In this document: in pieces, positions 8,607 through 64,000 of the stretch
Layout: every line of letters starts with the position of its first letter
How positions within the stretch are numbered: position 1 is the stretch's first letter
From: a phage
Reading direction: 5' to 3' (one strand)
DNA: 64,000 bases
Sequence record: PZ534534.1
Translations under genes and position numbers: made by a program
The notes under the pieces: generated by a model
What the model saw: only the letters and a program-made list of their open reading frames with translations
What the model was told of the DNA's origin: nothing
Database searches by the model: none

Positions 8607-8731
8607 AGATCTGGTGTTGGTGTCAAGTTTAATTTTAAGCGATTCTGGGGGGGTATTTTGTTCAGGAGGGTAATCACACAGGGTAGGGCAATTTATGAAG
8701 GCACAGGCCTCGTTTGAGGCCTTAAAATAGG

Positions 8732-9112
8732 TTATGACGCTTTGACGTAGCGCTCTGACAAAGCTGGGAAGCCAAAAGCAGTACCTATACTACCGTATGC
8801 TACCCACCATTGAAGTTCATCGTGACACCATTTTCCGATCAGGAAGGTGCTGGGGTAGCGGGTCAGTATTTTGGCATAAGCTTTAGGGTCTGCATCCTCT
8901 GGGATAATGATACTTGGAACATCTTTGTTATGACCACAGCAGCAGTTTAGAGTTTTCAATCCTGCCGCCCATAGACTCATGATAGGCTTAGCCATGCACT
9001 TATCAAGGCACACACGTTTTTTGCCGTCACGGAGCTTTTTAGGCACATCAACGATAACATTTTGATGCTTGGCACCTTTCACTTTCCAATTATAGGATTT
9101 ACACTTGCACAT
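8732..9112 (-). CDS. hypothetical Cys-rich protein (126 aa)
   Basis: ORF; N-terminal CKCKSYNWKVKG and CCCGHNKD cysteine cluster; function unknown. Confidence 0.45.
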   Translation of the reverse strand: MCKCKSYNWKVKGAKHQNVIVDVPKKLRDGKKRVCLDKCMAKPIMSLWAAGLKTLNCCCGHNKDVPSIIIPEDADPKAYAKILTRYPSTFLIGKWCHDELQWWVAYGSIGTAFGFPALSERYVKAS

Positions 9113-10899: not shown

Positions 10900-11345
10900 A
10901 ACAGGTATAGCTCCTTATGAAAGTGGTCTTTTAATTTCTCACTGAGAAACTTCTTGATACCTTCCTCTAAAGTGTTTTCGATGTAGTCCAGCTTAACTGC
11001 TTCGATGGACATATCATAGATTGCCAGCTCTAAGCTGTCAAGTCCCATCATAGCATGAACCATAAGATTTTCATCTTCAGATACATTCAGGGGACTTCCT
11101 ATAACATCTGTAGGTAGGATAGTTTCCCAATTATTCTGAGCGGTAGTTCTCCCGCCATCTACTTTACGGCGCAGTTCGAATGTGTTCTTAGTGTAGAACA
11201 CTTCATAAGAAACGATACGACTGTCACTCTCATAATAGACGAAGTTCAGGTAGGATCCTAGCCGCAGTCGGCAAACTTCCACCCCAAACCATTGTTTCTT
11301 ATAAGAATTCAGGCTAATGCTGTCGCATTCACGTTTGCTCAACAC
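10896..11345 (-). CDS. hypothetical protein (149 aa)
   Basis: ORF overlapping downstream gene by 4 nt. Confidence 0.5.
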   Translation of the reverse strand: MLSKRECDSISLNSYKKQWFGVEVCRLRLGSYLNFVYYESDSRIVSYEVFYTKNTFELRRKVDGGRTTAQNNWETILPTDVIGSPLNVSEDENLMVHAMMGLDSLELAIYDMSIEAVKLDYIENTLEEGIKKFLSEKLKDHFHKELYLL

Positions 11346-11361
11346 GGTTATCTCCTTTTTG

Positions 11362-11595
11362 TTAATCTTCGTAAATCAGGATTTCTGCTTTAGGTTTTCG
11401 TGCTTTCAGGTCCAGCTCTATCCAGTGCACCATAGCTGTTTCAAGAAAAACAGCCTGTATGCATCCGTCTTCAGCGTGCCCTACCAGCATAACAAGATCT
11501 TCACCTTCATCATCTGCATCACGAACATACAAAATCTCTCCAGATTCAAAGTCTTTCACAACCTGATTGCTGGATAATTTACGAATTTTTGCCAT
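11362..11595 (-). CDS. hypothetical protein (77 aa)
   Basis: ORF in array. Confidence 0.45.
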   Translation of the reverse strand: MAKIRKLSSNQVVKDFESGEILYVRDADDEGEDLVMLVGHAEDGCIQAVFLETAMVHWIELDLKARKPKAEILIYED

Positions 11596-14746: not shown

Positions 14747-15646
14747 ATGGCAAATCTTAACAGTTTTAGTACGCGGTGGAAACAGGACATAACAACCAAT
14801 CTTTCAGCTGGGGACATCCTTTCTGCAATTTACGAGGCTTTAGATGATAAAGCTACTTCAAAAGCGGTTTGTACCAACCCATTAATTCCTATAGTGATGA
14901 AGGTTATTGAGCGTAGATTGGTATCTGGGTCTGATAAGTGGACATATTTAGATAATGAAGGACACACCTATTCCAATGGGTATGTCGATATAAAAGTAGA
15001 ATACGCGGTATCATACCGCCGGAGCGGTTCTGTAACTTTCAACTTCTCTGGAGGTTTTCGATCTCTGGCTACCTCACCTTTTGTTTCCTCAGAGGAGAAG
15101 TATGAGCTGCCATTTCTTTGGATGATGGCTAACGCGACAGGAAAAACCCCCGTTAGCATCCGAGTAAAATACAACTACAACGGATCTAGTAAGATCTATG
15201 CCGAAAGTGTCTCAGCAAGTTTTTATTTTGTGATGGGGGATGGAATCCTCAAACATATAAAGATGTGCGATATGCATGATGTTATAAATGAAGTGACTGA
15301 TAAGAATGTTCTAGTGAAAGACCTCAACAATTTTTATACACCTGGAGACTATTACGTCAGCCGTCCGCTGTGCATCTTTAATGCCGCACACCCTCTAGGT
15401 GAGTATTTGATCGCCAATAGCGATATTGCCAATAACCGCTTCGAGGTAGCAAGAGTTCAGAATGAGGTATTGACATCTTGCAAGAGCGGTGATAAGTTTA
15501 CCGAAGAAGAGATGGGTGTTTTAGAAATGATGGGATATAAGTGTAGCCTTTGGGTAGATGAGGTGTTTAATGATTGCATCTATGGACAGGATATTTACCC
15601 ATTAAAGAAGTATACTGATACAAGTTTAATTTATGCGAGGGTTTGA
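14747..15646 (+). CDS. hypothetical protein (299 aa)
   Basis: ORF with GGAG RBS; first gene of long plus-strand block. Confidence 0.6.
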   Translation: MANLNSFSTRWKQDITTNLSAGDILSAIYEALDDKATSKAVCTNPLIPIVMKVIERRLVSGSDKWTYLDNEGHTYSNGYVDIKVEYAVSYRRSGSVTFNFSGGFRSLATSPFVSSEEKYELPFLWMMANATGKTPVSIRVKYNYNGSSKIYAESVSASFYFVMGDGILKHIKMCDMHDVINEVTDKNVLVKDLNNFYTPGDYYVSRPLCIFNAAHPLGEYLIANSDIANNRFEVARVQNEVLTSCKSGDKFTEEEMGVLEMMGYKCSLWVDEVFNDCIYGQDIYPLKKYTDTSLIYARV

Positions 15647-52822: not shown

Positions 52823-53086
52823 ATGAAACGTCTGGATCAGCTTAAATTAGTTCAGTACATGGCCTACAGAATTCTTGAAGTCCAAAAAGGTAGCAAAAAA
52901 GAGGTTTGCGAGAAAGCTTATAAGATCTTTACTCGCAAAAAAGATGACTGGATGCTACGCCAGACCAAAAAATCCGATATCCTGGGGTACCTGGAAGAAG
53001 AGATCCGGCTTGAAGAGCAAGAAGAGATCCGCCGTAGTGAGGCAGATTATCAGGCAGCTTGGGAAAACTGGATGAGCAACAAATAA
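52823..53086 (+). CDS. early protein (87 aa)
   Basis: ATG after CATAAAGAGGAAAACATC (track start 52751 upstream in same frame). Confidence 0.5.
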   Translation: MKRLDQLKLVQYMAYRILEVQKGSKKEVCEKAYKIFTRKKDDWMLRQTKKSDILGYLEEEIRLEEQEEIRRSEADYQAAWENWMSNK

Positions 53087-53152
53087 TACAACAAGTTACA
53101 TGGTCAGGGGCAATAAAGCCCCTTGATCACATAAAAATTATGCTATCCTTGG

Positions 53153-53181
53153 TTGACAGGGATCGGCAGTTTTGCTATATT
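53153..53181 (+). promoter_or_regulatory. sigma70-type promoter (TTGACA-17-TATATT)
   Basis: Read directly upstream of 53232 gene. Confidence 0.55.
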
Positions 53182-53231
53182 CTTTTTTGAAGGGAAGTTG
53201 TAAGAAAATTAACTGAGAGGTAAAAAACACC

Positions 53232-53651
53232 ATGAACATTAAATCTGATAATCCGGCATATAGCTTTGATAACGCTTTTTGTCACGGTCCGGCGGCGAAA
53301 GGATTCGAAATCGATGGTAAACTAATTATTGTCAATGTTGACGGGGAAGAGGTTGCAGTATATCCGGTGGCGGACGTTAAAAGCCGTCTACAATGCCGCA
53401 TGGATGTTACCGCCTATCAGCTTGATCCGGTCCGCATAGTTGCCCTGGTCCTGGAAGAAGAAATTAAAGCCATGCACCATAGCAACAGATTTATTGGTGA
53501 CGCGCAGGATAATATGAAAGTATGCCGCCATAAAGTTAATGAAGTGCTTAAAGAGTACGGTTATAAAGATCTTATGATCAAACGTGAGGAAAAATTCCGC
53601 TACCGTAACGACCTGGCAAATCGGATTTTTGAAATATACGAATCATTATAA
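53232..53651 (+). CDS. early protein (139 aa)
   Basis: GAGAGG RBS; last gene of plus-strand early block. Confidence 0.55.
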   Translation: MNIKSDNPAYSFDNAFCHGPAAKGFEIDGKLIIVNVDGEEVAVYPVADVKSRLQCRMDVTAYQLDPVRIVALVLEEEIKAMHHSNRFIGDAQDNMKVCRHKVNEVLKEYGYKDLMIKREEKFRYRNDLANRIFEIYESL

Positions 53652-53670
53652 TTTTTTAACTGAATTATCA

Positions 53671-53699
53671 AGGGGCTTAGGCCCCTTTCTTTTTGTCTG
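53671..53699 (+). terminator. rho-independent terminator
   Basis: AGGGGC-tta-GCCCCT hairpin followed by TTCTTTTTG. Confidence 0.7.
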
Positions 53700-56098
53700 C
53701 TCTTCTCCTACCATAAACGGCCCTACCTGGCAAGTGGAATAATTGACTAGCTATTAATCCCACACACTGTACAAATATACATGGAAAATAACTATTGCAT
53801 AATTTTTCATTGTGTGGTAGCAAGGCCATTTTTGCCCGTTTTCTCTCCCAAAATTGCACGTAATGCCGCTATTGCATAAATTTTAACCTGATGCATATCT
53901 TCAATATCTTGTCAACAAATAAAAATTCTTATAAGTCATACACTTACACAACATCGAAAGCGTGTCCTATGCGAAAAATCGAGTATAACTATAGCCGCCA
54001 GATTTCAGAATTTACGTACGCTCACCATTCTATAGCTTGCTAAGTATTTATTCCAACCATAGAATAACGGAATAGTCAATACCTGCATAAAATAATTATT
54101 CGTTTAAATTGCATAACATAAATCAGCTCAGGTGTCAACATTTTTCGTAAACAGTCCGAAATTGTCACGGCAAGTTATCATAAGCAGAGAAATCTTTAGT
54201 CGTCTAATGTTTACTGTACGTTACTATACTAACTGGAATCATTAGATGACTAACAGAAAGATAAGAAATAATTAATAATGTAATTGTTTTACCTGTAACA
54301 ATAAGGCAACTATGCAAACGAATGGCATGGCGCGACGGAGTCGCGACATAATATAAAAGCAGTAACCATCACCCCCGTGATAGTTTGTCTGCAAACTATT
54401 AATCAGATCATAGTTGCCTTGTATTTAGTTAATCATGACATAACAAGCAAGGCAACTATAGATCTGCTAATAGTTGCCCTGCTTTTATATTATGTCATAT
54501 ATTATTAACTTGTTAATTGTTAACTTGCTAATTGTTTTCATGCAAACGAATGTCATGGCTTATCATATCTGTGTAAACTGTCAAGGTGTAAACAGTCTAT
54601 GCGGGAACAATCTATACGTGAACAGTGAAACATGAAATAATAACAGTCGTTATTGTGCCATATTGTGTCCGGTGTGTCAGACAAGTTTTTCTCCTCTTTG
54701 TCAAGTGCTGCATGAAAAATTTACAAACTGGTATGGTAGCATTTTTGCGGCCCTGTTTACATTCAGCGATGTATGTATAATCCTTGTTGTGTGGGCGTTT
54801 AGACGTCTAGACGGTTGGAAGTCTGCAGGTCAATATCTAATCTATTGGCTGCTAACTATATCCCACACAAATAGTAAGAAATATGATTGTTATATGCGTA
54901 AACTGTAACTCATGTTATCAATCCCTGTATGTATCGCCAGTGGTGCGCATAATGGGTATTATGTTAAATTGCCCGTAATGATAACTATTCTCACAATGAT
55001 AGGTATTCTCATTCACCCCCACAAGATAGGTTGCAAATGTTGTGCCACTGTGTGAACGGCCTCACCTATTAATTTGCCTCACTGCCTCGATATTTGAGAA
55101 TTATTATAAGAATGAGAAGTATTCCCATTTCGTCCGCCTGGCAGCACTCCAGTCGCTACCGCTCATGACAGGGCAGAACTAGACCCTCTTCAGATATTTC
55201 TGGCTGACTCTTCAGGTCTGTGTGGGAAAAGCCAACCTCTCCGGCGGGGAAGGGGAGGTCAATTAAAAAATTTACGTGGTGTATGAAGCGCTCTTCAGGT
55301 AAGGCATGTGTTATGGGATGAAACCCTCTTCAGGCAATGATATTTGTGGGTGTGATATTTGCTGGAAAGCCAGATATGACGGGACTCCCGGCGGGGCAGG
55401 GGTAGTACAGACAAGGAAAATGTGGGGATGTGGTGGGAGTAAATTGATCAGACAGGTAGAGTATGGAATATGTTACAGGTATGTTAAATAGGGAGGCTGA
55501 ATATCTGTAAGATTTGTGTGTAAAATCAAAGACTTAAGTGGTGTTGTGGTATTTTCTATAAATAATTCAAGTTTAATAGGTAATATTTGTCTCTATCCGC
55601 CTTGTGTGGTAAACAGATTCAGATGAGATTGGTTTACAAGTGTATACATAATATACAAATTAAAGATACAAGAAACCCCCCTCCCCCTTCGGCTACCATT
55701 CACCTTTTCCTCTGACTGGTACTTAAACACTTATTCAGACTCTTCAGGTTATCACCCATATATCATATGGCAGTGACTGGTGTCCTCCGGCCACTCTTTC
55801 GTCACCCGTCCGCTTCGCCATGCTAATGCCATAGCCAATGGTTCGGTTGTTCACCCTGTTCACTCAGGTGTATCTCCATACCCCTTCAAACCGAAGAGAA
55901 CAGAAAACCCGAATTACTCGGTAAAAGAAAAGAGAAGAACTTAATTTTATCAGGATAGGCAAGAATGTCAAGGCATGACTGCTCACTAAACAAGCAAACA
56001 GTCATGTGTGGGAGGTAAGTGATTGTGGTGGTAGGAAATTTAGTTGAAAGATGTGTTATAGGTGCTTCCAGCACTTTAGCCGGGCAGCTAATTGTGTG
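53700..56098. other. 2.4-kb gene-free strand-switch region with nested palindromes and iterated motifs (candidate replication origin / regulatory hub)
   Basis: No convincing ORF on either strand; inverted repeats, direct repeats and six CTCTTCAGG copies read directly. Confidence 0.5.
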
Positions 56099-56395
56099 TC
56101 AGTCCAGCGGTTCATCCTCTACTTCACTGAAATCAATATTCATGGTCTCTTCCCAACCATCGATCTCAGCACAAGAGTGGAGTTCTTTAGGGTTTACTCC
56201 CAAAGCCTCAGCAACAGAGTCTATATTTAACACCTCTGGCAGGTATGATTCATCGAATTCAAGGTAAATCAGGCCACGAGTGTTGTCAGCCCCACCAAAT
56301 ATTTCTATCTTCATAAAATCTCCTCTGGGAATGAGAGTGTGAACAGGGTTTTATACGTTCCAATGCACAAGAATTATACACGTTTGCCTCTTCAG
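55186..56395 (+). repeat. six dispersed copies of CTCTTCAGG-type motif, all in same orientation
   Basis: Copies at about 55186, 55208, 55291, 55326, 55740, 56387, read directly. Confidence 0.5.
56099..56314 (-). CDS. small acidic protein (71 aa)
   Basis: GAGGAG RBS 6 nt upstream on minus strand. Confidence 0.5.
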   Translation of the reverse strand: MKIEIFGGADNTRGLIYLEFDESYLPEVLNIDSVAEALGVNPKELHSCAEIDGWEETMNIDFSEVEDEPLD

Positions 56396-56435
56396 GCCAT
56401 GCTTTAGCATGAGGAACCTGTGTGGGCTCGGTGCT

Positions 56436-56648
56436 TCATAGTCTACCACCTCTGAACTCTTCGTGCTCAGGCATAATAGAGAACCAGATATCTACGATGT
56501 CCTCCCACGTCAGGTCATCAGCCTCAGGATCTGTCTGGGACGAAGATGAAGAGTCCTCAGAATCTAAGTTTTCCTCTTTAACTGGCTCATCCAAGGGACA
56601 TATGGTCACTCCTTCGGATGTCTCTTCAGATGCATGTGTGTTGATCAT
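56436..56648 (-). CDS. small acidic Ser/Glu/Asp-rich protein (70 aa)
   Basis: ORF with GGGTGGA RBS. Confidence 0.45.
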   Translation of the reverse strand: MINTHASEETSEGVTICPLDEPVKEENLDSEDSSSSSQTDPEADDLTWEDIVDIWFSIMPEHEEFRGGRL

Positions 56649-57008
56649 GTTCCACCCGTGAGTATTCCGGCAACAGCCGCTATGGACGTAATGATCATCA
56701 GGATCACCACTAAAACTTCGGACAATGTTCTCATTGTGTACTCCATATTCTACAAACTATGTGTGGATACTATCACTGGATCGGTAATGTGTCAACAGAA
56801 ACGCCGCGAGGGTTTGGTTAAAATCCGAGCGTATGGTGATTTGGGTCAAAACGGACGTGCGTTCTCGCTACGCTCGAAAGAGAGATTTGTTTGTAGGAAG
56901 CTCTTAAACGCTCTGTAACGAGATTATCTGTCCAAGGTATGCAATCGTGCACCAGATAAAGAAAAGGACGCCACAGAGCGTCCTAGGTGTCTTAAATTTG
57001 ATATTTTG

Positions 57009-57320
57009 CTATACCCATGAGGGCTTATCAAGGTTGGAGTAGCTGAAAGGTGTCAAAAGGTGACTGTCAAAATCTCTCAAACTATCCAAATCTTTTTCCT
57101 CGTCCTGACACCATCTGTGCCTACATTTATTGTTGTAGTGCATAGAATGCATAGCGTTCTGCAACTTAACAGGCACAAGTGATTCAGGAGTAGATAGTAT
57201 TGTTGGGTATGCCAGAACCACCTCAAACAGTGGAAACACATCGAAACTAAAGTCTACCTCTGCAGAGGTTGATGGCATGTAAGAGTATTTAGCCGCCTTT
57301 GTAGACATAATCCACCTCAC
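57009..57320 (-). CDS. hypothetical protein (103 aa)
   Basis: ORF overlapping upstream gene by 4 nt. Confidence 0.5.
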   Translation of the reverse strand: MRWIMSTKAAKYSYMPSTSAEVDFSFDVFPLFEVVLAYPTILSTPESLVPVKLQNAMHSMHYNNKCRHRWCQDEEKDLDSLRDFDSHLLTPFSYSNLDKPSWV

Positions 57321-57643
57321 ACAGGTTTGATAATACCTTTACCGAATAACTCTTCGTATCTAATCTTATCCGGATCCCACTCCTGGATAATTTCGAAGAC
57401 AATATCCAACCCTGGGATAATCACTTCTCCAGTGTCGAGCTTAGCAAGAACAAAACCGGAGGGTTGAATGGTTTCCCAGTTGCGCCGATTGGAATAGAAG
57501 ACCTCGAAAATATCGCCGACCTTTATCTGTTGATCAAGATGTTCAAGATTCTCTTTCATATAGACGCAGCGGATTTTTCGTGCAGGCCATAGACCACCTG
57601 CATCACGTTCATTCAATTCTTTTACAGTGATAGGTATACCCAT
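57317..57643 (-). CDS. hypothetical protein (108 aa)
   Basis: ORF in array. Confidence 0.5.
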   Translation of the reverse strand: MGIPITVKELNERDAGGLWPARKIRCVYMKENLEHLDQQIKVGDIFEVFYSNRRNWETIQPSGFVLAKLDTGEVIIPGLDIVFEIIQEWDPDKIRYEELFGKGIIKPV

Positions 57644-57670
57644 CTCAAATCTCCTTCATAGATAGTAAAA

Positions 57671-57696
57671 AGAGGGGTCCAAGCCCCTCTTTTTGT
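57671..57696. terminator. bidirectional rho-independent terminator
   Basis: AGAGGGG-tccaag-CCCCTCT hairpin flanked by A-tract and T-tract; lies just 3' of minus-strand gene 57699..58004. Confidence 0.65.
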
Positions 57697-57698
57697 CA

Positions 57699-58004
57699 TT
57701 ATTCTACAGAGCGTTTGAACAGAATGTCTGCCTCGGACATGTGCTCAACCTCTTCTTCGATTTTAGCTCGACGTTTTTCAGCCTCATAGCGAATATCGAA
57801 CTCGGTAGCCACCAGAGATTTGATGAATTTAGGAGAATACAGGTGATCCTGCTTCTCAACGAGAATGATATCCTTGATGGCATCTTTCAGATCTTTAATC
57901 TGAAGTTGGAGTTCCACCAGTTCTTCGATTGTTTTGCGAAGGCGATCACGCTCTGCAGTGTCAGAAGGAAGAGAGGTGAACAGTTCAACTTTAGATTTAG
58001 CCAT
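57699..58004 (-). CDS. coiled-coil protein (101 aa)
   Basis: Glu/Lys/Leu-rich heptad-like sequence. Confidence 0.5.
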   Translation of the reverse strand: MAKSKVELFTSLPSDTAERDRLRKTIEELVELQLQIKDLKDAIKDIILVEKQDHLYSPKFIKSLVATEFDIRYEAEKRRAKIEEEVEHMSEADILFKRSVE

Positions 58005-58032
58005 AGTAAGAGTCTCCTTATGTTGTTTTAAA

Positions 58033-58284
58033 TTAACGTTCTACAAAAATACCGTTTAGTTCAATAACCAGGAATTTCTGGTCTTCACTGTCGTCTCGTG
58101 CCAGCACCTCACAGACGTATCGGTCATCTCCATCATCATCGCAGTCAAATACAAGACTGAGGACTTTATCATGATAAACCTTCGCCACTACCGCCTCGTA
58201 AGTATTGCCGATTGTGAATCCAAGATAATCTCCGATGCATTTGACAACAACATGGTCGCCAGCATTCAAGTCAATCTTCGTCAT
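58033..58284 (-). CDS. hypothetical protein (83 aa)
   Basis: ATG after AAGGAG RBS (track start 58350 upstream in same frame). Confidence 0.5.
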   Translation of the reverse strand: MTKIDLNAGDHVVVKCIGDYLGFTIGNTYEAVVAKVYHDKVLSLVFDCDDDGDDRYVCEVLARDDSEDQKFLVIELNGIFVER

Positions 58285-58439
58285 TACTGCGCTCCTTGGG
58301 TAATAATACTGTATGTAAAACTTTAACCAGAGATGTGAATAACGCCCCAAAACACACCGATAGCGCTAAAACAGACAAGGCCATCATTAAAGCTTCAGTA
58401 AAATCAGTCACTCCTCACCTCTTGTTAGTCACTATACTG

Positions 58440-58703
58440 TCATTTATCCTTGCCGTCAAGAACTTTTTTAAATCTTTCAGGGATATCGCCTGTTCTTAGA
58501 TAGCTCATGACCTCACAAGGTTCCCACTTGAATTTCTTACAAAGCAGGGCGGCTGAGATTGTTTCATTGCGAAAAGAAAGGATATTAATATCCCATTCTG
58601 AGAACCCCAACTTCCGAAGGGTAGCTACAGAAATCCTCACCGCAACCCAGCAGCAAAAACATGCAACAAACGCCACTGCTATAACCCACATCAGGATGTT
58701 CAT
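58440..58703 (-). CDS. membrane protein (87 aa)
   Basis: N-terminal TM MNILMWVIAVAFVACFCCWVAV. Confidence 0.5.
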   Translation of the reverse strand: MNILMWVIAVAFVACFCCWVAVRISVATLRKLGFSEWDINILSFRNETISAALLCKKFKWEPCEVMSYLRTGDIPERFKKVLDGKDK

Positions 58704-58792
58704 ACAAGCACCTCACTGAAATACAAGACACAGTGTTAAGGTTACTGACCAGCAAATAATTAGCAGGACCATTGCAACCTTGGCAAGATTTA

Positions 58793-59080
58793 TCATAGTG
58801 CCTCTAAGATTTCATATCCTTCAGGTCGAAATACAAGCCACTCCGTGGCTCCGTTTGGTCGATACGCTTTATACAGAACAACCTGATCTCGGCACATGCA
58901 CATGGCTACATAGTTTTCATCCACACCTGCAGCCTGCATTGCATCTTCTTCTCCGGCAACTGCTTTGCTTACAACTTCCTTGGTAGGCAGGTGTGCGATC
59001 AGCTCGTCACCATCATTAATTCCAAAATGACTGAGTTCTCCATTGGTATCTTTAATCTTAATCTTAACCAGATCTTTCAT
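58793..59080 (-). CDS. small acidic protein (95 aa)
   Basis: ORF in tandem array. Confidence 0.5.
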   Translation of the reverse strand: MKDLVKIKIKDTNGELSHFGINDGDELIAHLPTKEVVSKAVAGEEDAMQAAGVDENYVAMCMCRDQVVLYKAYRPNGATEWLVFRPEGYEILEAL

Positions 59081-59409
59081 TAGTCTTTCTCCAGGTTCAA
59101 AGGTCCTAAGATTTCATATGCTAGATTAGAAGTTACCAGAGGGTCTTCTGCATCTTTAGTATTGTACCACCCGTGAATAACCAGAGTCCCACTTTGTTTC
59201 ATATCCAACTGGAACTGTTCTGCAGTTTCCTCATCCATCTCTAAGATCTCCATGAGGTATTTGATGTTAGGAAGGTATGCAGCTGTTACAGTTCCCTCCA
59301 CCAAACCTTCGGGCCAACCTACATCCGGATGACAAGTAGGAACCAGATTAGTCAGCTTAATAGTGTACGCTTTTTCTGCACGAGCCTTCAGTAACGGGTC
59401 AATCTTCAT
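59080..59409 (-). CDS. small acidic protein (109 aa)
   Basis: ORF in tandem array; 1-nt overlaps. Confidence 0.5.
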   Translation of the reverse strand: MKIDPLLKARAEKAYTIKLTNLVPTCHPDVGWPEGLVEGTVTAAYLPNIKYLMEILEMDEETAEQFQLDMKQSGTLVIHGWYNTKDAEDPLVTSNLAYEILGPLNLEKD

Positions 59410-59759
59410 TATTCGTCCTCCTCTTCGGTGCCTGCTTCCAGTAATAAGTTAAGAATATCTTCTGCACAAGGTTCATAGAACTCTTGGCCTTCATTATCGA
59501 TGATTTTGTAGTCATCTCCACGAATAATCAGGGGATCACTCTCAAAATTATCGAGACCTTTAACAACGACAACACGATCGATTGCCATCATTGTAAGAAC
59601 TTTATCGACATCTTCCTCTGCTACACCATACTGCAGCAGAATGTCTTTGGTAGGAGGAACAGCATCCACCACAACGCCGTTACCAAAACCTTCTGGAAGT
59701 TTAGCTAAAATATCTTCCGGAACCACATTCACATCAAAACCGGTAATTTCTACTTTCAT
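59409..59759 (-). CDS. small acidic protein (116 aa), paralog family C
   Basis: MKVEITGFD... and acidic tail; resembles 59760 and 61184 genes. Confidence 0.5.
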   Translation of the reverse strand: MKVEITGFDVNVVPEDILAKLPEGFGNGVVVDAVPPTKDILLQYGVAEEDVDKVLTMMAIDRVVVVKGLDNFESDPLIIRGDDYKIIDNEGQEFYEPCAEDILNLLLEAGTEEEDE

Positions 59760-60020
59760 TTACAGCACCTCTTCGTCAACTACTTCATAAAAATGGCCTG
59801 GGATTGCAATAGCGTTCTCACCTTCACCTACAAACACAGTTCCGTCAAGAATCAACATCATAAGAATTTCTGTAATATCCTCTTCCGGAACGTTGCCAAA
59901 ACCTTTAATCAGCTCGTAGGTTGGAATATTTACCTCTAAGATGTCACCATCTTTAGAACGGAAATCAACACCGTCCTGAATCTCTGCCGTTTCAAGGTTT
60001 TTCAATTTAATCTTCATCAA
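59760..60020 (-). CDS. small acidic protein (86 aa), paralog family C
   Basis: MMKIKLKNL...GEGENAIAIPGHFYEVVDEEVL parallels 61184 gene ending ...GNGEELIVTPDVYEIVEE. Confidence 0.5.
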   Translation of the reverse strand: MMKIKLKNLETAEIQDGVDFRSKDGDILEVNIPTYELIKGFGNVPEEDITEILMMLILDGTVFVGEGENAIAIPGHFYEVVDEEVL

Positions 60021-60096
60021 TCGGTCTCCTGTCTTGTTAAGATGAAGGTATTATTTCACACAGGGTTGGCGTTGTCAACACCTGTGTGCAAGAAAA

Positions 60097-60492
60097 TTAC
60101 TGAAACAGTGCGGATAAATTACCTTCTGGTGGGAACTTATCTGCCAAAAACGGTGTTAGCACAGTAGCCTTCTGAAGATCTGGGGTCCACTCGTTGTTCA
60201 GAACATCCCAGTAGTACGCAATGTTGCTGTGTGGGTGCCGCATTACGAACTTTTTCCCTTCGTAGTCATCTGAAACCTCTACAGAAGAAATAACAACAGA
60301 ATCTTCAAGGGTTTCTTCATAGAAAGATCCGCCTTCAAATTTCCAACGAGATGCAAGAGCCCCTGCCTTGAACGCTGCAGATAACGGACTGTCGGCAAGA
60401 ACATACATTTCTTGCACTCTGTCGCTGCGATCTTTGCTTCTTACGTTGTATACAGTATCTGAGCTATACTCAACACGGTATAGGCTTACCAT
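60097..60492 (-). CDS. hypothetical protein (131 aa), paralog family B
   Basis: Shares ...HPHSNIAYYWDVLNNEWTPD... with 62304 gene (...HPDSRVKHYWNARTKTWTPF...). Confidence 0.55.
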   Translation of the reverse strand: MVSLYRVEYSSDTVYNVRSKDRSDRVQEMYVLADSPLSAAFKAGALASRWKFEGGSFYEETLEDSVVISSVEVSDDYEGKKFVMRHPHSNIAYYWDVLNNEWTPDLQKATVLTPFLADKFPPEGNLSALFQ

Positions 60493-60824
60493 TACCGCAC
60501 CTCCTCAATAACTTCCACATCTGAACCTACCACAAATGCAAAAGGACAGGTTTCATGAAAGACATCCGGATCGCCGCCAAGCTTGCTAACAATCTCTCCA
60601 CCACTAATAAACACAAGCTCACCGATATTCATCAGATTGCTGAAATAGTACCCATAATGATTAAAGAATGCAGCAGGGTCAGGTAGACTAGTAGCCTCAA
60701 GCACTACATCAGTTGAGGTTACTTTCTTATCATAACCTCTCGCCTTTTGAGATGCAAGATCTGCAGAATCCTCAGGCGACCGGAGATGCACAGGAATTGT
60801 TTCACCAATAAAGCGTACTTTCAT
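60492..60824 (-). CDS. hypothetical protein (110 aa), paralog family A
   Basis: ATG chosen (MKVRFIGE...) by analogy to paralogs; shares ...ISGGEIV...VVGSDVEVIEEV with 62704 and 62948 genes. Confidence 0.5.
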   Translation of the reverse strand: MKVRFIGETIPVHLRSPEDSADLASQKARGYDKKVTSTDVVLEATSLPDPAAFFNHYGYYFSNLMNIGELVFISGGEIVSKLGGDPDVFHETCPFAFVVGSDVEVIEEVR

Positions 60825-60828
60825 ATTA

Positions 60829-61092
60829 TCACCCAACAACCATAGCTTCAAAAGGGGTCATGAACGAATAAACGGCATCATCATCTGCTTCAGGGAATGC
60901 TCCCAAAGACTTCATGTCTGAGCCCTTGACAAATACAAGGTTTTGATCAAAAGCTTCTTGAGGATCAATCCGATACATATTCCGTAGAATATCGCCTACC
61001 TCCTCATCAAGAGGTGAGTATGCTGTGCACGTTTTTCCGATCAAGCTTTGAGAATCAGGGTATCCACCTGAAGTTTTAAAATAAACAATCAT
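60829..61092 (-). CDS. hypothetical protein (87 aa)
   Basis: ORF in tandem array. Confidence 0.5.
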   Translation of the reverse strand: MIVYFKTSGGYPDSQSLIGKTCTAYSPLDEEVGDILRNMYRIDPQEAFDQNLVFVKGSDMKSLGAFPEADDDAVYSFMTPFEAMVVG

Positions 61093-61183
61093 ATAGTATC
61101 ACCTCTGGTAAGAGATTGGGATTCCTTTCCCACAAATAATTACAAACCTTCCTTATCGAGGAAGTATGCTAATCCAAGCAGGA

Positions 61184-61453
61184 TTATTCCTCTACAATCT
61201 CATACACATCCGGAGTTACAATCAACTCTTCTCCGTTACCCGGTGCAACAAACACCACCAGACCTTCAGGTGTGTGCTTTTTAGCCATCTCGATGACATC
61301 TTCTCGCAGAGCTGGCTCCATCAGATCAAAACCTTCACCCAAGGCATCACGAACCACCTTCATGTAGTCCACTGGTTGTGCTTCAACAATCATGCCTTCA
61401 ACCAGTCCACAGTTTTTGTCTGCCAGCTCAGTTTTGAATAATTTAATTTTCAT
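61184..61453 (-). CDS. small acidic protein (89 aa), paralog family C
   Basis: MKIKLFKTEL...YEIVEE. Confidence 0.5.
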   Translation of the reverse strand: MKIKLFKTELADKNCGLVEGMIVEAQPVDYMKVVRDALGEGFDLMEPALREDVIEMAKKHTPEGLVVFVAPGNGEELIVTPDVYEIVEE

Positions 61454-61590
61454 TTAGAGGTCTCCTCAATTATTTGATATCAATAGCCGTAACCTAACAC
61501 ATTAACTACAACTGCGATTGCAAACATAATTTCAAAGCATGCAATCTCTACACTTGGGACTAATTTCTTAATCACGCCCATTGTAGCACC

Positions 61591-61908
61591 TCATTCTCCA
61601 AAGTCAATCTTTACTTTTCCTTTCCCTTTACCTTTCTTTCCACCACATTTAGCCAGCTGACGTGCTGCAACATCTACCATACGGTCAGTTGCCTCGTAAG
61701 CATCACTGCCTTTAGCTTTGGCAATAACTTCTTTTCCAGAAGTGTCAAAAATGAACGCCATAACTTCCTGGTGATCATTTTCAACTTTTACACTTACACG
61801 TGCATGATTTACAGAAGGATGTAGACGCTCCAGTTTTGACATTTTGTGGGAAATGAAAGACACCATACCTTCGGTGATTTCTACGTTGCCAGTGATCTCA
61901 ATTTGCAT
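61591..61908 (-). CDS. hpf: ribosome hibernation promoting factor / RaiA (YfiA) family homologue
   Basis: MQIEITGNVEITEGM...KLERL...VSVKVEN...AKAKGSDAYEATDRMVDVAARQLAK parallels E. coli HPF (MQLNITGNNVEITEAL...KLEQY...VVLKVEK...AEGQDMYAAIDGLIDKLARQLTK) along full length; Lys/Gly tail. Recalled alignment, not computed. Confidence 0.7.
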   Translation of the reverse strand: MQIEITGNVEITEGMVSFISHKMSKLERLHPSVNHARVSVKVENDHQEVMAFIFDTSGKEVIAKAKGSDAYEATDRMVDVAARQLAKCGGKKGKGKGKVKIDFGE

Positions 61909-61995
61909 AACGTGCTCCTCTCAAGGAAGGGAGAATAACAACCATCTCTCTTTGAAAACAATAATACTATAGCTGAAGCGTTGTGTCAACAGTTT

Positions 61996-62286
61996 TTACA
62001 GCTTGTTGTCGATAGTATCTAAAATATCTACAGCAAGATCTGCCATTTTTCGAACATACTCTGCAAACTCAACAGGATCCTTGATCAAAGAATTCACAGG
62101 GTCGTACCCTAGAGCGTTCAAAATGGCTGCAGCATCTACAACCTTTTCATCATTTGCAAAGATCTCTCCGTCAAACTTATAGGTCCATTTTGAGTCAATC
62201 TTGGCAGGGCATGGTTGGTACATGCTTGTTACACCATCGTCTTTAACCTCTCCTGCGTTATCAATATTCAGAACTAAATCCATCAT
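61996..62286 (-). CDS. hypothetical protein (96 aa)
   Basis: ORF in tandem array. Confidence 0.5.
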   Translation of the reverse strand: MMDLVLNIDNAGEVKDDGVTSMYQPCPAKIDSKWTYKFDGEIFANDEKVVDAAAILNALGYDPVNSLIKDPVEFAEYVRKMADLAVDILDTIDNKL

Positions 62287-62303
62287 AGTGGCACCTCACT
62301 GTT

Positions 62304-62702
62304 TCAGTTTAGCTTTTCTTCAACAACCCCATAGCTCGGGGCAGAGTCAAGAGCTTTTTGGTTTAAAAGTGGTGTAGCAGAATCTGCAAACGGTGTCCAA
62401 GTTTTTGTTCTGGCATTCCAGTAATGCTTCACTCTGGAATCTGGATGCACTATAACAAAAACTTTTTCACTTGTCAACACATTAATTTCTTCTGCACCTT
62501 TGCTGATAATTTCTCCGTCATAGCCACCAGTCTGGTACCCTTCGTACCATGTTCTTGCATAGGCATAGCCAGCCTGCCAGCATGCAGCCTCCTCCGAGGT
62601 GGAGACTACGTAGAAGTCTTTCTCAAATTCTGGAATACGTCCTTGCTTTACGCTCCAAGCTCCGCGAATTTTCATTGTTACTTTGAAAAGCTTGTTCTTC
62701 AT
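62304..62702 (-). CDS. hypothetical protein (132 aa), paralog family B
   Basis: See 60097 gene. Confidence 0.55.
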   Translation of the reverse strand: MKNKLFKVTMKIRGAWSVKQGRIPEFEKDFYVVSTSEEAACWQAGYAYARTWYEGYQTGGYDGEIISKGAEEINVLTSEKVFVIVHPDSRVKHYWNARTKTWTPFADSATPLLNQKALDSAPSYGVVEEKLN

Positions 62703-62703
62703 A

Positions 62704-62958
62704 CTACCGCTCTACAATCTCTACATCTGTTCCTACACCGAAGGCATAGTAATGTTCTTCCTCAAAGTAATACTTGGGGACACCAGCTTTGATCAGATCT
62801 GACCCGCGAATAAATACCACACAGTGTGATACAGTGGAATGCTTCTGACGCACAGGATCGTTGTCAGGCAACCATTCGAAGTATGCCGCAGGTACGACCT
62901 TTCCTTTCAGGAAGGATTGTCCCAAGTAGACGTTAGAGTCAAGAATTTTAACCTTCAT
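62704..62958 (-). CDS. hypothetical protein (84 aa), paralog family A
   Basis: MKVKILDSNVYLGQ...IRGSDLIKAG...GTDVEIVER. Confidence 0.55.
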   Translation of the reverse strand: MKVKILDSNVYLGQSFLKGKVVPAAYFEWLPDNDPVRQKHSTVSHCVVFIRGSDLIKAGVPKYYFEEEHYYAFGVGTDVEIVER

Positions 62959-63175
62959 GATCGTCCTCCACTATCTCCACATCCTCTCCTAGGGCAAAGT
63001 TGTAGGTCCACTGACTGTCAAAGCATTCCTGAGATGCGCCAGCGGCAATAAGAGCTGACCCTTTTATTTTTAAAAGGTCAGGGTAATCTTTATTAGGAAC
63101 AGCGGTAAACACTTTTCCAACCAAAGGCTCTTGACCAATATAGAAGCTTGAATCTAAAACTTTAACTTTCATCAA
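62948..63175 (-). CDS. hypothetical protein (75 aa), paralog family A
   Basis: MMKVKVLDSSFYIGQ...IKGSALIAAG...GEDVEIVEDD. Confidence 0.55.
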   Translation of the reverse strand: MMKVKVLDSSFYIGQEPLVGKVFTAVPNKDYPDLLKIKGSALIAAGASQECFDSQWTYNFALGEDVEIVEDDHEG

Positions 63176-63459
63176 CGGTCTCCATCAGGTGGTTGTGGGA
63201 CGTAAACACTGTTACGAATATCGTCCGCAGTATAGTAATAAGTGTCTCCAACCCTATCTCTGGCTGCAATGTACTCTGCTATACCAATAAGTGCCATTGA
63301 TTTGGTGGCGTATCTTCCCAACTCGTTAGCTCCCCAGTAGAATTTAGACCAATAGGGAATAAGACCGAACAAATATACCTTTTGACGAACTTCCCAGTAA
63401 GTGCCTTTCCCGACAAGTTTAAACTCAACTTCACCACTGTTAACCTTTTTCATTATCAA
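63172..63459 (-). CDS. hypothetical protein (95 aa)
   Basis: ORF in tandem array. Confidence 0.5.
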   Translation of the reverse strand: MIMKKVNSGEVEFKLVGKGTYWEVRQKVYLFGLIPYWSKFYWGANELGRYATKSMALIGIAEYIAARDRVGDTYYYTADDIRNSVYVPQPPDGDR

Positions 63460-63752
63460 TCTCCCTCCACCGTGGTTGGATTGTCAGTAAGAAATTGAGC
63501 ATTGGCTGGAGGAACGCCTGACATTTTCCACACAACCATAAGTTTGTAACCAGGCACTCTATTAAGTGCAGATCGAGTAGAGTTTGTGCACGTATACTTT
63601 CTCTTTCCAAACCCGTTCTCCATCATAATCCAGTACCCAGTATCTTTGTCACCAGGTATTGGTAGACCACATTCATCAACCCACTGAATGGACCACGGCA
63701 CGATGGCTACAGCTTTATATTTAAACTTTTTAAACCACTCAAAAAGTTTCAT
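63456..63752 (-). CDS. hypothetical protein (98 aa)
   Basis: ORF in tandem array. Confidence 0.5.
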   Translation of the reverse strand: MKLFEWFKKFKYKAVAIVPWSIQWVDECGLPIPGDKDTGYWIMMENGFGKRKYTCTNSTRSALNRVPGYKLMVVWKMSGVPPANAQFLTDNPTTVEGD

Positions 63753-63755
63753 AAT

Positions 63756-63845
63756 TCAGCCTCGCATAGACATAATCACTATAAACAGGCAAACAATGAA
63801 TCCGAATGCCACGCCACCCATAAACGTTAATATTGATGCAATCAT
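63756..63845 (-). CDS. small hydrophobic peptide (29 aa), absent from ORF track
   Basis: ATG overlaps stop of upstream partial gene (TGACTATGA); MIASILTFMGGVAFGFIVCLFIVIM hydrophobic; translated by hand. Confidence 0.3.
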   Translation of the reverse strand: MIASILTFMGGVAFGFIVCLFIVIMSMRG

Positions 63846-63847
63846 AG

Positions 63848-64000
63848 TCAATCAGCCTCGCTTGGCAACTCTTCTACCTTAACATGCCGAAAAGTGTTAC
63901 CGTAATGGTTGATCCATGACATCAGCTCGCTTTCTTGCTCTTCCTCTGGGATGAACTCTCGAATGCTGACAAGTTTTAAGAAAACCCAATCACAATCTGC
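63848..64000 (-). CDS. hypothetical protein, C-terminal fragment (5' end beyond window)
   Basis: Minus-strand frame open from window edge to TGA at 63848-63850. Confidence 0.35.
   Translation of the reverse strand, partial: ADCDWVFLKLVSIREFIPEEEQESELMSWINHYGNTFRHVKVEELPSEAD

Follow-up and report, generated by a model that had tools for sequence, protein, structure and literature searches.

The stretch of DNA analyzed here (the window) comprises 64,000 nucleotides of phage sequence record PZ534534.1 and carries, towards its end, an array of small genes that is the subject of this work:

56099..63845, minus strand: the whole array, 28 small coding sequences (CDS) according to the open reading frame (ORF) listing and the GenBank annotation of phages CarlMeissner and HdK5

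The phage belongs to the rV5-like coliphages (Vequintavirus), its identity to phages naswa, magaca and CarlMeissner being 96-97%. Megablast with positions 56000-64000 matched 122 phage records, nearly all of them Escherichia phages of the genus Vequintavirus, with query cover of at least 80% in 116 and identity of 95-99% in 91, the top matches being naswa and magaca (97.3%). Where the original prediction, made from the sequence alone, had seen about 25 small minus-strand genes in tandem, we count 28, of which 23 encode at least 46 amino acids (aa) and five encode 29-44 aa. Both CarlMeissner (Bas48) and HdK5 are annotated at this locus with an unbroken minus-strand run of hypothetical proteins, in which the sole named product is a ribosome hibernation factor. 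On the same strand and transcriptionally upstream lie genes for ClpP, PhoH, two ribonucleotide reductases, thymidylate synthase and replication/recombination nucleases. Since the genome paper of rV5 places the array and these upstream genes in a single leftward transcription unit, 'genes 10-1-238-164' (PMC3606486), the array constitutes the promoter-distal end of that long early/middle unit.

The products are, as had been proposed, mostly acidic. Net charge is negative in 17 of the 23 larger proteins, the isoelectric point (pI) lies below 5 in 11 of them, and their median pI is 5.0, versus about 6.3 for ORFs elsewhere in the window, which is a crude baseline. The strongest charges, all accompanied by a pI of about 4.05-4.08, belong to the products of 59409 (-21), 56436 (-17), 56099 (-16) and 59760 (-13), genes being designated here by their first coordinate, and the exceptions are five small hydrophobic ORFs and three basic proteins, namely a ribosome hibernation promotion factor (HPF), 63172 and 63456. 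The proposed absence of any recognizable enzymatic motif is borne out as well, for Pfam scans of more than 20 array proteins (E<=0.1 to 1) returned a single match, that of the non-enzymatic HPF/S30AE protein at 61591-61908. The tight packing inferred at first, with genes abutting or overlapping by 1-4 nt, applies to only some one in three of the 27 junctions: there are nine overlaps, of 1-14 nt, one abutting pair and five gaps of at most 9 nt, whereas the other twelve junctions have gaps of 17-91 nt, several of which hold promoter-like sites.

Three families of duplicated genes

Eleven of the array genes descend from three ancient duplicated families, here termed A (four genes), B (two genes) and C (five genes):

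62948..63172, minus strand: A1, 74 aa, charge -7; sequence used for the structure model
62704..62958, minus strand: A2, 84 aa, charge -1; family A, allelic hot spot
60829..61092, minus strand: A3, 87 aa; absent from the original prediction
60492..60824, minus strand: A4, 110 aa; some 35 residues are inserted (N-terminal/internal)
62304..62702, minus strand: B1, 132 aa, pI 7.8, charge +1; motif HPxS...YW...WTP
60097..60492, minus strand: B2, 131 aa, charge -7
61184..61453, minus strand: family C member, 89 aa, charge -10
59760..60017, minus strand: family C member, 85 aa, charge -13; sequence used for the structure model
59409..59759, minus strand: family C member, 116 aa, pI 4.05, charge -21; acidic tail at the C-terminus
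59080..59409, minus strand: family C member, 109 aa; absent from the original prediction
58793..59080, minus strand: probable family C member, 95 aa; absent from the original prediction

Sequence and profile comparisons support this grouping. Smith-Waterman scores were judged against 300 shuffles of each partner, and none of the 300 reached the observed score for any of seven pairs: 62704/62948 (z=22), 60492/62704 (z=9.3) and 60492/62948 (z=6.6) in family A, 60097/62304 (z=17, more exactly 16.8) in family B, and 59409/59760 (z=7.7), 59760/61184 (z=6.1) and 58793/59409 (z=6.1) in family C. Ortholog-group alignments were then assembled from sequences of the window, of two close phages and of a divergent relative, together with database matches, and compared by hhalign in 378 pairs. 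Nine of these passed the Bonferroni threshold, all of them inside families A, B and C and with E values from 1e-22 to 5e-5, giving the groups 62948, 62704, 60829 and 60492 (A), 62304 and 60097 (B), and 59760, 59409, 59080 and 61184 (C). The profile comparison thus recovers the three families first proposed and enlarges them by 60829, 59080 and 58793.

The individual assignments differ in strength. In family A, A3 aligns with 62948 over 68 columns (E=4e-8) and with 62704 (E=4e-6), having the family motif LVFVKGSD...G...Y.F in common with them, and A4 gives E=4e-8 and 3e-6. The two B genes match each other at E=1e-11. In family C, the hhalign values are E=1e-6 for 59409 with 59760, E=5e-6 for 59080 with 59409 (z=4.3 by Smith-Waterman) and E=5e-5 for 61184 with 59760, the family-C hidden Markov model (HMM) reaching E=7e-26 on 61184. 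Gene 58793 joins this family more weakly, through four hhalign matches with E values of 5e-4 to 1.5e-3, the pair with 59409 already given and a Smith-Waterman z of 4.2 with 59760. A fifth member of family A, bas48_0172 in CarlMeissner, lies just outside the window (E=5e-10 with the family-A HMM; E=2e-12 for its ortholog in the divergent relative).

Part of this paralogy is already implicit in public clustering, since PHROGs independently places A1 with A2 and B1 with B2: phrog_5009 takes 62704 and 62948, and phrog_7379 takes both B genes, with E values from 1e-27 to 1e-74. Gene 60829 also matches phrog_5009, at E=1e-4, whereas A4, A3 and all five C genes are otherwise split into separate single-ortholog families for which neither function nor fold is given. 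The order A-A-B occurs twice in the array (62948-62704-62304 and 60829-60492-60097) and the best cross-module hhalign pairs are positional, 60829 pairing with 62948 and 60492 with 62704, so that a segmental duplication of three genes appears possible from the sequence. Its history is obscured because A1 and A2 are far closer to each other than to their cross-module partners.

Families A and C, nine genes in all, are predicted to encode small, mostly acidic SH3-like β-barrels. The prediction is based on AF2 models of one sequence of each family (A1 and 59760), and both folds are confident. Small β-barrels of the SH3-like and KOW-like kind, such as eukaryotic SH3, the KOW domains of Spt5/NusG, PsaE and bacterial SH3-like domains, are the closest fold class to the two models. 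With the C model as query, Foldseek matched only uncharacterized phage proteins in BFVD:

Vibrio phage Vc1, 86-aa protein: E=6e-5, TM 0.71
Vequintavirus, 95-aa protein, second best match: E=1.6e-3, TM 0.67; going by its length alone, probably the ortholog of 58793
Vequintavirus, 83-aa protein: E=0.03; possibly the ortholog of 58033

Family A proteins were not recovered by the C model in BFVD, which provides no direct structural link between the two families. What A and C have in common is the fold class and an N-terminal MK(V/I)K strand. A link between A and C was also sought by sequence, with no significant result: hhalign gave E=0.033 and, with enlarged alignments, E=0.0021 at a probability of 13% over 27 N-terminal columns. 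No Pfam family, SH3 and KOW families included, matched any of the array families, the A, B and C profiles found no sequence relatives in the PDB at E<=10, and the searches of Pfam, PHROGs and PDB sequences assigned no function to A, B or C.

Conservation and natural variation of the array

The families are confined to a single lineage. In a tblastn search of 50,697 phage genomes, A2, B1, C and HPF were found in 117-120 records, every one a Vequintavirus; overall, A2, B1 and C occur in 116-120 of about 120 genomes. Profile searches of 5.8 billion proteins (word-indexed) yielded 26 clusters for A, 6 for B and 53 for C, all of them from Vequintavirus-like contigs or from E. coli assemblies bearing them. 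When 1.84 billion representatives were searched exhaustively by HMMER with the B profile, five matches were real, and the three loci that B matched in IMG/VR added no new lineage. Two further matches of the HMMER search were set aside, a low-complexity artefact (P0089) and a marginal repeat protein regarded as spurious (P0090, E=9e-4). A sequence with DUF7399 on a 657-bp chimeric contig (P0083) was disregarded too. We also observed that the array region is matched at 96% identity or more by 18 GenBank records named 'Campylobacter phage' (MG0656xx, host C. jejuni); they are probably mislabelled or contaminant.

The divergent relative, L003, is a 128-kb metagenomic contig that aligns with only one third of the block, at about 72% nucleotide identity, and its enzymes are 74% (PhoH), 69% (ClpP) and 85% (methyltransferase) identical to those of CarlMeissner. 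The array is syntenic in L003 and each paralog except B1 has its own ortholog there, with identities of 66, 44, 57 and 55% in family A, 40% for B2 and 58, 49, 29, 47 and 46% in family C; the duplications are therefore older than the L003 split. By this comparison divergence is somewhat more rapid in the family proteins than in the enzymes. Within the genus, pooled pN/pS from Nei-Gojobori counts against two phages is 0.13-0.14, for the eleven family genes and the whole block alike, and many array genes present only synonymous differences, from which it follows that these are real genes under purifying selection.

Such values bear directly on the notion that the array might be functionless filler, that is, neutral duplication remnants or chance ORFs. 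The small size of the genes, their lack of known domains and the sporadic truncations and fusions described below would suit it, yet the pooled pN/pS of 0.13, the retention of orthologs in a relative whose enzymes are just 69-85% identical and the confident AF2 folds effectively refute it, and we leave it next to no chance of being correct. The same comparison qualifies the idea of a proliferating gene arsenal, for which copy-number variation among relatives had been expected: each paralog is instead conserved in single copy, in about 116-118 of about 120 genomes, which is for the most part the outcome that the original prediction had named as refuting it. Neither copy-number turnover nor raised dN/dS, as would characterize an arms race, was found among close relatives, apart from an allele swap at 62704, rare fusions and deletions, and the loss of B1 in L003. 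Judging from these sequence comparisons, the array genes are old and fixed in the genus and not a fast-turning arsenal.

The variation that does occur is concentrated in a few places. A2 (62704-62958) is a mosaic hot spot, only 76% identical in nucleotides and 78% in amino acids to CarlMeissner and most Vequintaviruses, whereas its flanks are 93-100% identical. Two allele classes occur across phages, that of the window being present in just 8 of 118, and pS and pN for this gene are 0.54 and 0.15. The highest pN/pS of the block, 0.46, was observed nearby, in 61996-62286. In L003, an unrelated 96-aa ORF (8692-8982) stands in the place of B1 and an extra 98-aa gene (11092-11388) is inserted between B2 and the C cluster, which suggests gene gain and replacement inside the block; a precomputed match of the 98-aa product to PF27050 (P22 Y8K6-like) was not reproduced by a repeat Pfam scan. 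On two contigs of about 133 kb (P0017 and P0018) the N-terminus of A1 is fused to the C-terminus of A2, as would be expected from recombination between tandem paralogs. Elsewhere B1 is fused to the C-terminus of 61996 (P0031), and truncations were found in P0022, P0029, P0030 and the A2 gene of L004.

The most extensive change is that of EduardKellenberger (Bas59), a viable phage of the BASEL collection, in which, according to blastn, 3.8 kb are deleted, the junction showing an overlap of 15 nt. The deletion spans the equivalent of positions ~62390 to ~66216, ending about 2.2 kb past the end of the window:

62390..64000, no strand assigned: part of the window deleted in Bas59, from a partial tblastn match, the annotation and blastn breakpoints

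Bas59 has lost most of B1 together with A2, A1, 63172, 63456, 63756 and about nine further genes, and retains a glycosidase-B1 chimera. Because this phage is viable, at least the A1-A2-B1 end of the array can be lost without abolishing plaque formation on E. coli K-12. The block has an accessory character: it encodes no enzymes, its ORFan families are limited to a single phage lineage, and deletions and fusions occur in it naturally, if rarely.

Expression signals and neighboring genes

The region holds 40 σ70-like sites, compared with 25.8 ± 4.8 in shuffled sequences. The main sites, together with terminator-like hairpins and two further genes outside the three families, are as follows:

61961..61989, minus strand: σ70-like promoter, TTGACA-17-TATTAT, 11/12 matches, just upstream of the HPF gene
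60050..60078, minus strand: σ70-like promoter, TTGACA-17-AATAAT with extended -10, 11/12 matches, between B2 and the four-gene C cluster
62477, minus strand: σ70-like promoter, 11/12 matches, inside B1
56965..56984, minus strand: intrinsic-terminator-like hairpin after gene 57009, conserved in L003 and a terminator in the HdK5 annotation
57665..57696, no strand assigned: terminator, a strong symmetrical hairpin with T-runs on both sides, between 57699 and 57643 and annotated in HdK5
61591..61908, minus strand: HPF/S30AE, ribosome hibernation promotion factor (PF02482), in mid-array with its own conserved promoter
57699..58004, minus strand: putative small DNA-binding protein or transcriptional regulator, matching phrog_639 'transcriptional regulator' at E=1e-21

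The first two promoters have counterparts at conserved positions in L003 (9261-9289 and 11043-11071, respectively), and the sites in the array fit the 33 host-type promoters reported for rV5 (PMC3606486). The HPF product exceeds the gathering score of PF02482 with 50.2 bits against a cut-off of 23.7 (E=4e-13, 83 of 88 profile positions). Its orthologs are labelled HPF or RaiA in many records and, in the phage collection, occur in Vequintavirus only; a phage-encoded HPF has already been noted in the literature (PMC6375957). No gene of the block is as well conserved as the putative regulator at 57699-58004, with 86% identity to L003 and terminators on both sides. It matches a GapR-like DNA-binding domain weakly and is annotated in some records as a double-stranded DNA-binding protein or transcriptional regulator.

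Scattered between the soluble acidic proteins are the five small hydrophobic ORFs, of 29-87 aa and a single helix each (56645-56746, 58271-58411, 58440-58703, 61480-61581 and 63756-63845). They encode putative membrane peptides, and the two larger ones have orthologs in L003. Downstream of the array, positions 53700-56098 form an ORF-free stretch of about 2.4 kb that corresponds to the 'non-coding' box drawn past gene 164 in the rV5 genome paper, in which the paralogs are unmentioned (PMC3606486). Blocks of this stretch are 78-97% identical to L003, versus about 65-72% for the genes, and iteron-like direct and inverted repeats of ATAGTTGCC occur around 54296-54496; the stretch may be an origin or a regulatory region. 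At 55899-55971, on the minus strand, a σ70 promoter close to consensus (TTGACA-16-TAAAAT with TG) precedes, by some 20 nt, a short GC hairpin and a T-run, with a predicted RNA of about 40 nt and a counterpart in L003 at 15317-15392. The 100-nt element there is about 93% identical to L003, the stem being kept despite changes in the loop, and it could encode a tiny small RNA or act as a transcriptional decoy. Rfam gave no match on 53000-64000.

Possible role of the array in infection

The takeover or early blocks of large virulent phages, such as the small early ORFs of T4, T5's pre-early genes and the host-takeover module of SPO1, are dense runs of small, often acidic, non-enzymatic ORFans. Their genes are read from host-type promoters, each can be dispensed with singly in the laboratory, and among them lie a few that modulate the machinery of the host. 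The array resembles these blocks, the interspersed modulators being in this case HPF and the small regulator; it differs from them in lying at the distal, and not the proximal, end of its transcription unit and in that no likeness in sequence or structure is detectable between A, B or C and any characterized takeover protein. The kind of block is well known in large virulent phages, whereas the A, B and C families themselves are uncharacterized and lineage-restricted.

Taking these features together, we propose that the array is an accessory block of SH3-like proteins that modulate the host as stoichiometric binders, an account that we hold to be about as likely right as wrong. It would be transcribed by the host RNA polymerase from internal σ70-type promoters, along with the phage HPF and the small regulator, whose host- or expression-modulating roles as neighbors count in favor of the proposal. 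The SH3-like proteins would act as stoichiometric, non-catalytic binders, each paralog docking on a different host (or phage) protein and so tuning host physiology during takeover, and duplication followed by subfunctionalization would have produced a fixed panel of binders in place of a rapidly changing anti-defense arsenal. Stoichiometric binding of host proteins seems to us the most likely mode of action, phage proteins being less likely targets, and host takeover is, from its genomic context, the most plausible general role.

Several points weigh against this proposal. Its functional half is drawn from fold class and genomic context, and the predicted fold covers families A and C, not B. 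Homology between A and C is unsupported by sequence (hhalign E=0.0021, probability 13%), and no cross-family pair was significant among the 378. Early timing is read from the promoters, because the block is distal in a very long operon with nucleotide-metabolism genes. The comparison with Bas59 involves non-isogenic phages and 11 defense systems only. Finally, the literature holds neither functional nor genome-wide fitness data for the array genes, the CRISPRi-ART study of the Vequintavirus EdH4 having covered selected genes.

The same fold class would also be compatible with a role inside the phage, in which the SH3-like proteins bind replication, transcription or assembly proteins of the phage itself, serving as adaptors, chaperones or timers. 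Domains of the SH3/KOW-like type are often used as adaptor modules, and strong conservation under purifying selection and co-transcription with replication and nucleotide-metabolism genes would agree with such internal accessory factors. Part of the block is nevertheless dispensable in the natural isolate Bas59, and the families are absent from other Vequintavirinae-related genera that have the same core machinery, the tblastn matches being in Vequintavirus only. Furthermore, the virion proteins named for rV5 include no array product (PMC3606486). We deem a phage-internal role rather improbable.

The remaining alternative was part of the original prediction, which saw in the array an arsenal for host takeover, DNA mimicry or anti-defense. 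Duplicated and diverged small acidic genes in an accessory block stand as described there; the predicted SH3-like folds, the fixity of the genes and the unchanged profile of Bas59 speak against the arsenal. As an anti-defense arsenal, the array would consist of acidic DNA mimics or other immunity inhibitors diversified by duplication against different systems, and its accessory, partly dispensable genes would agree with this. A mimic-like combination of low pI and high charge is present in 59409 (-21), 56436 (-17), 56099 (-16) and 59760 (-13), and not in 62704 (-1) or 62304 (+1). The raw data of the BASEL study are also suggestive, since Vequintaviruses plate on EcoKI with an efficiency of plating (EOP) of 0.06-0.8 despite 9-15 sites per genome, whereas the EOP of a siphovirus with three EcoKI sites falls to about 1e-4; nine such sites lie in the window alone. 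An escape limited to type I systems is the classic signature of mimics of the Ocr/ArdA type, although this is our own inference and not that of the BASEL authors, who put the weak type I effects down to the rarity of sites (PMC8594841). Like Ocr (T7 gp0.3) and ArdA, moreover, the array products are small, non-enzymatic and, as far as promoters tell, expressed early, and several are very acidic.

In other respects the array differs from Ocr and ArdA. The array has no sequence match to either protein, and the A and C models are predicted β-barrels without the elongated, largely helical Ocr/ArdA architecture. Neither model matched any characterized anti-defense or takeover protein in the PDB or BFVD, no known anti-defense protein was matched by sequence, and the families have no Pfam matches. 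Purifying selection acts on the genes, which are ancient and fixed and show no notable copy-number turnover. Vequintaviruses have been described as 'exceptionally susceptible' to restriction-modification, being highly sensitive to type II and III systems and to Fun/Z (PMC8594841), and EdH4 is sensitive to Hachiman (PMC12278908). In the raw EOP tables for 11 defense systems, Bas59, which lacks A1, A2 and B1, behaves like Bas57 and Bas58, in which the array is intact: EOP is about 1e-4 to 1e-3 on EcoRI and about 1 on RexAB, PifA, Old and Tin, no plaques form on EcoRV, EcoCFT_II or Fun/Z, and the profile is shared on EcoKI as well. Because Bas59 is unchanged, A1, A2 and B1 are not responsible for plating on EcoKI. 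We therefore regard an anti-defense arsenal as unlikely, and a DNA-mimic or anti-defense role for A, B and C as unsupported.

Near-normal plating on EcoKI still suggests an anti-type-I function somewhere in Vequintavirus genomes, for which the very acidic 59409, 59760, 56099 and 56436 are candidates, as is the rest of the genome. A more specific conjecture is that A and C form one new superfamily of free-standing acidic SH3-like phage proteins and that type I restriction, or some other host complex that binds nucleic acid, is inhibited in a new way, neither Ocr-like nor ArdA-like, by at least one highly acidic member retained in Bas59 (such as 59409 or 59760) or by one of the similarly acidic singletons, 56099 and 56436. 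We consider this a long shot; if true, it would explain near-normal plating on EcoKI despite 9-15 sites alongside destruction by type II and III systems.

As it stands, the array is an ordinary accessory early-gene block. Nonetheless, rV5-like phages are among the most often isolated coliphages and are candidates for therapy and biocontrol, while more than half of their genes are annotated as hypothetical. Eleven of these hypothetical genes can now be assigned to three families, two of them with a predicted fold class, and a natural deletion marks the dispensable end of the block. These results on family, fold and deletion narrow the experimental search for host-interaction factors, and the array is a reasonable place in which to seek the basis of the near-immunity of these phages to type I restriction.

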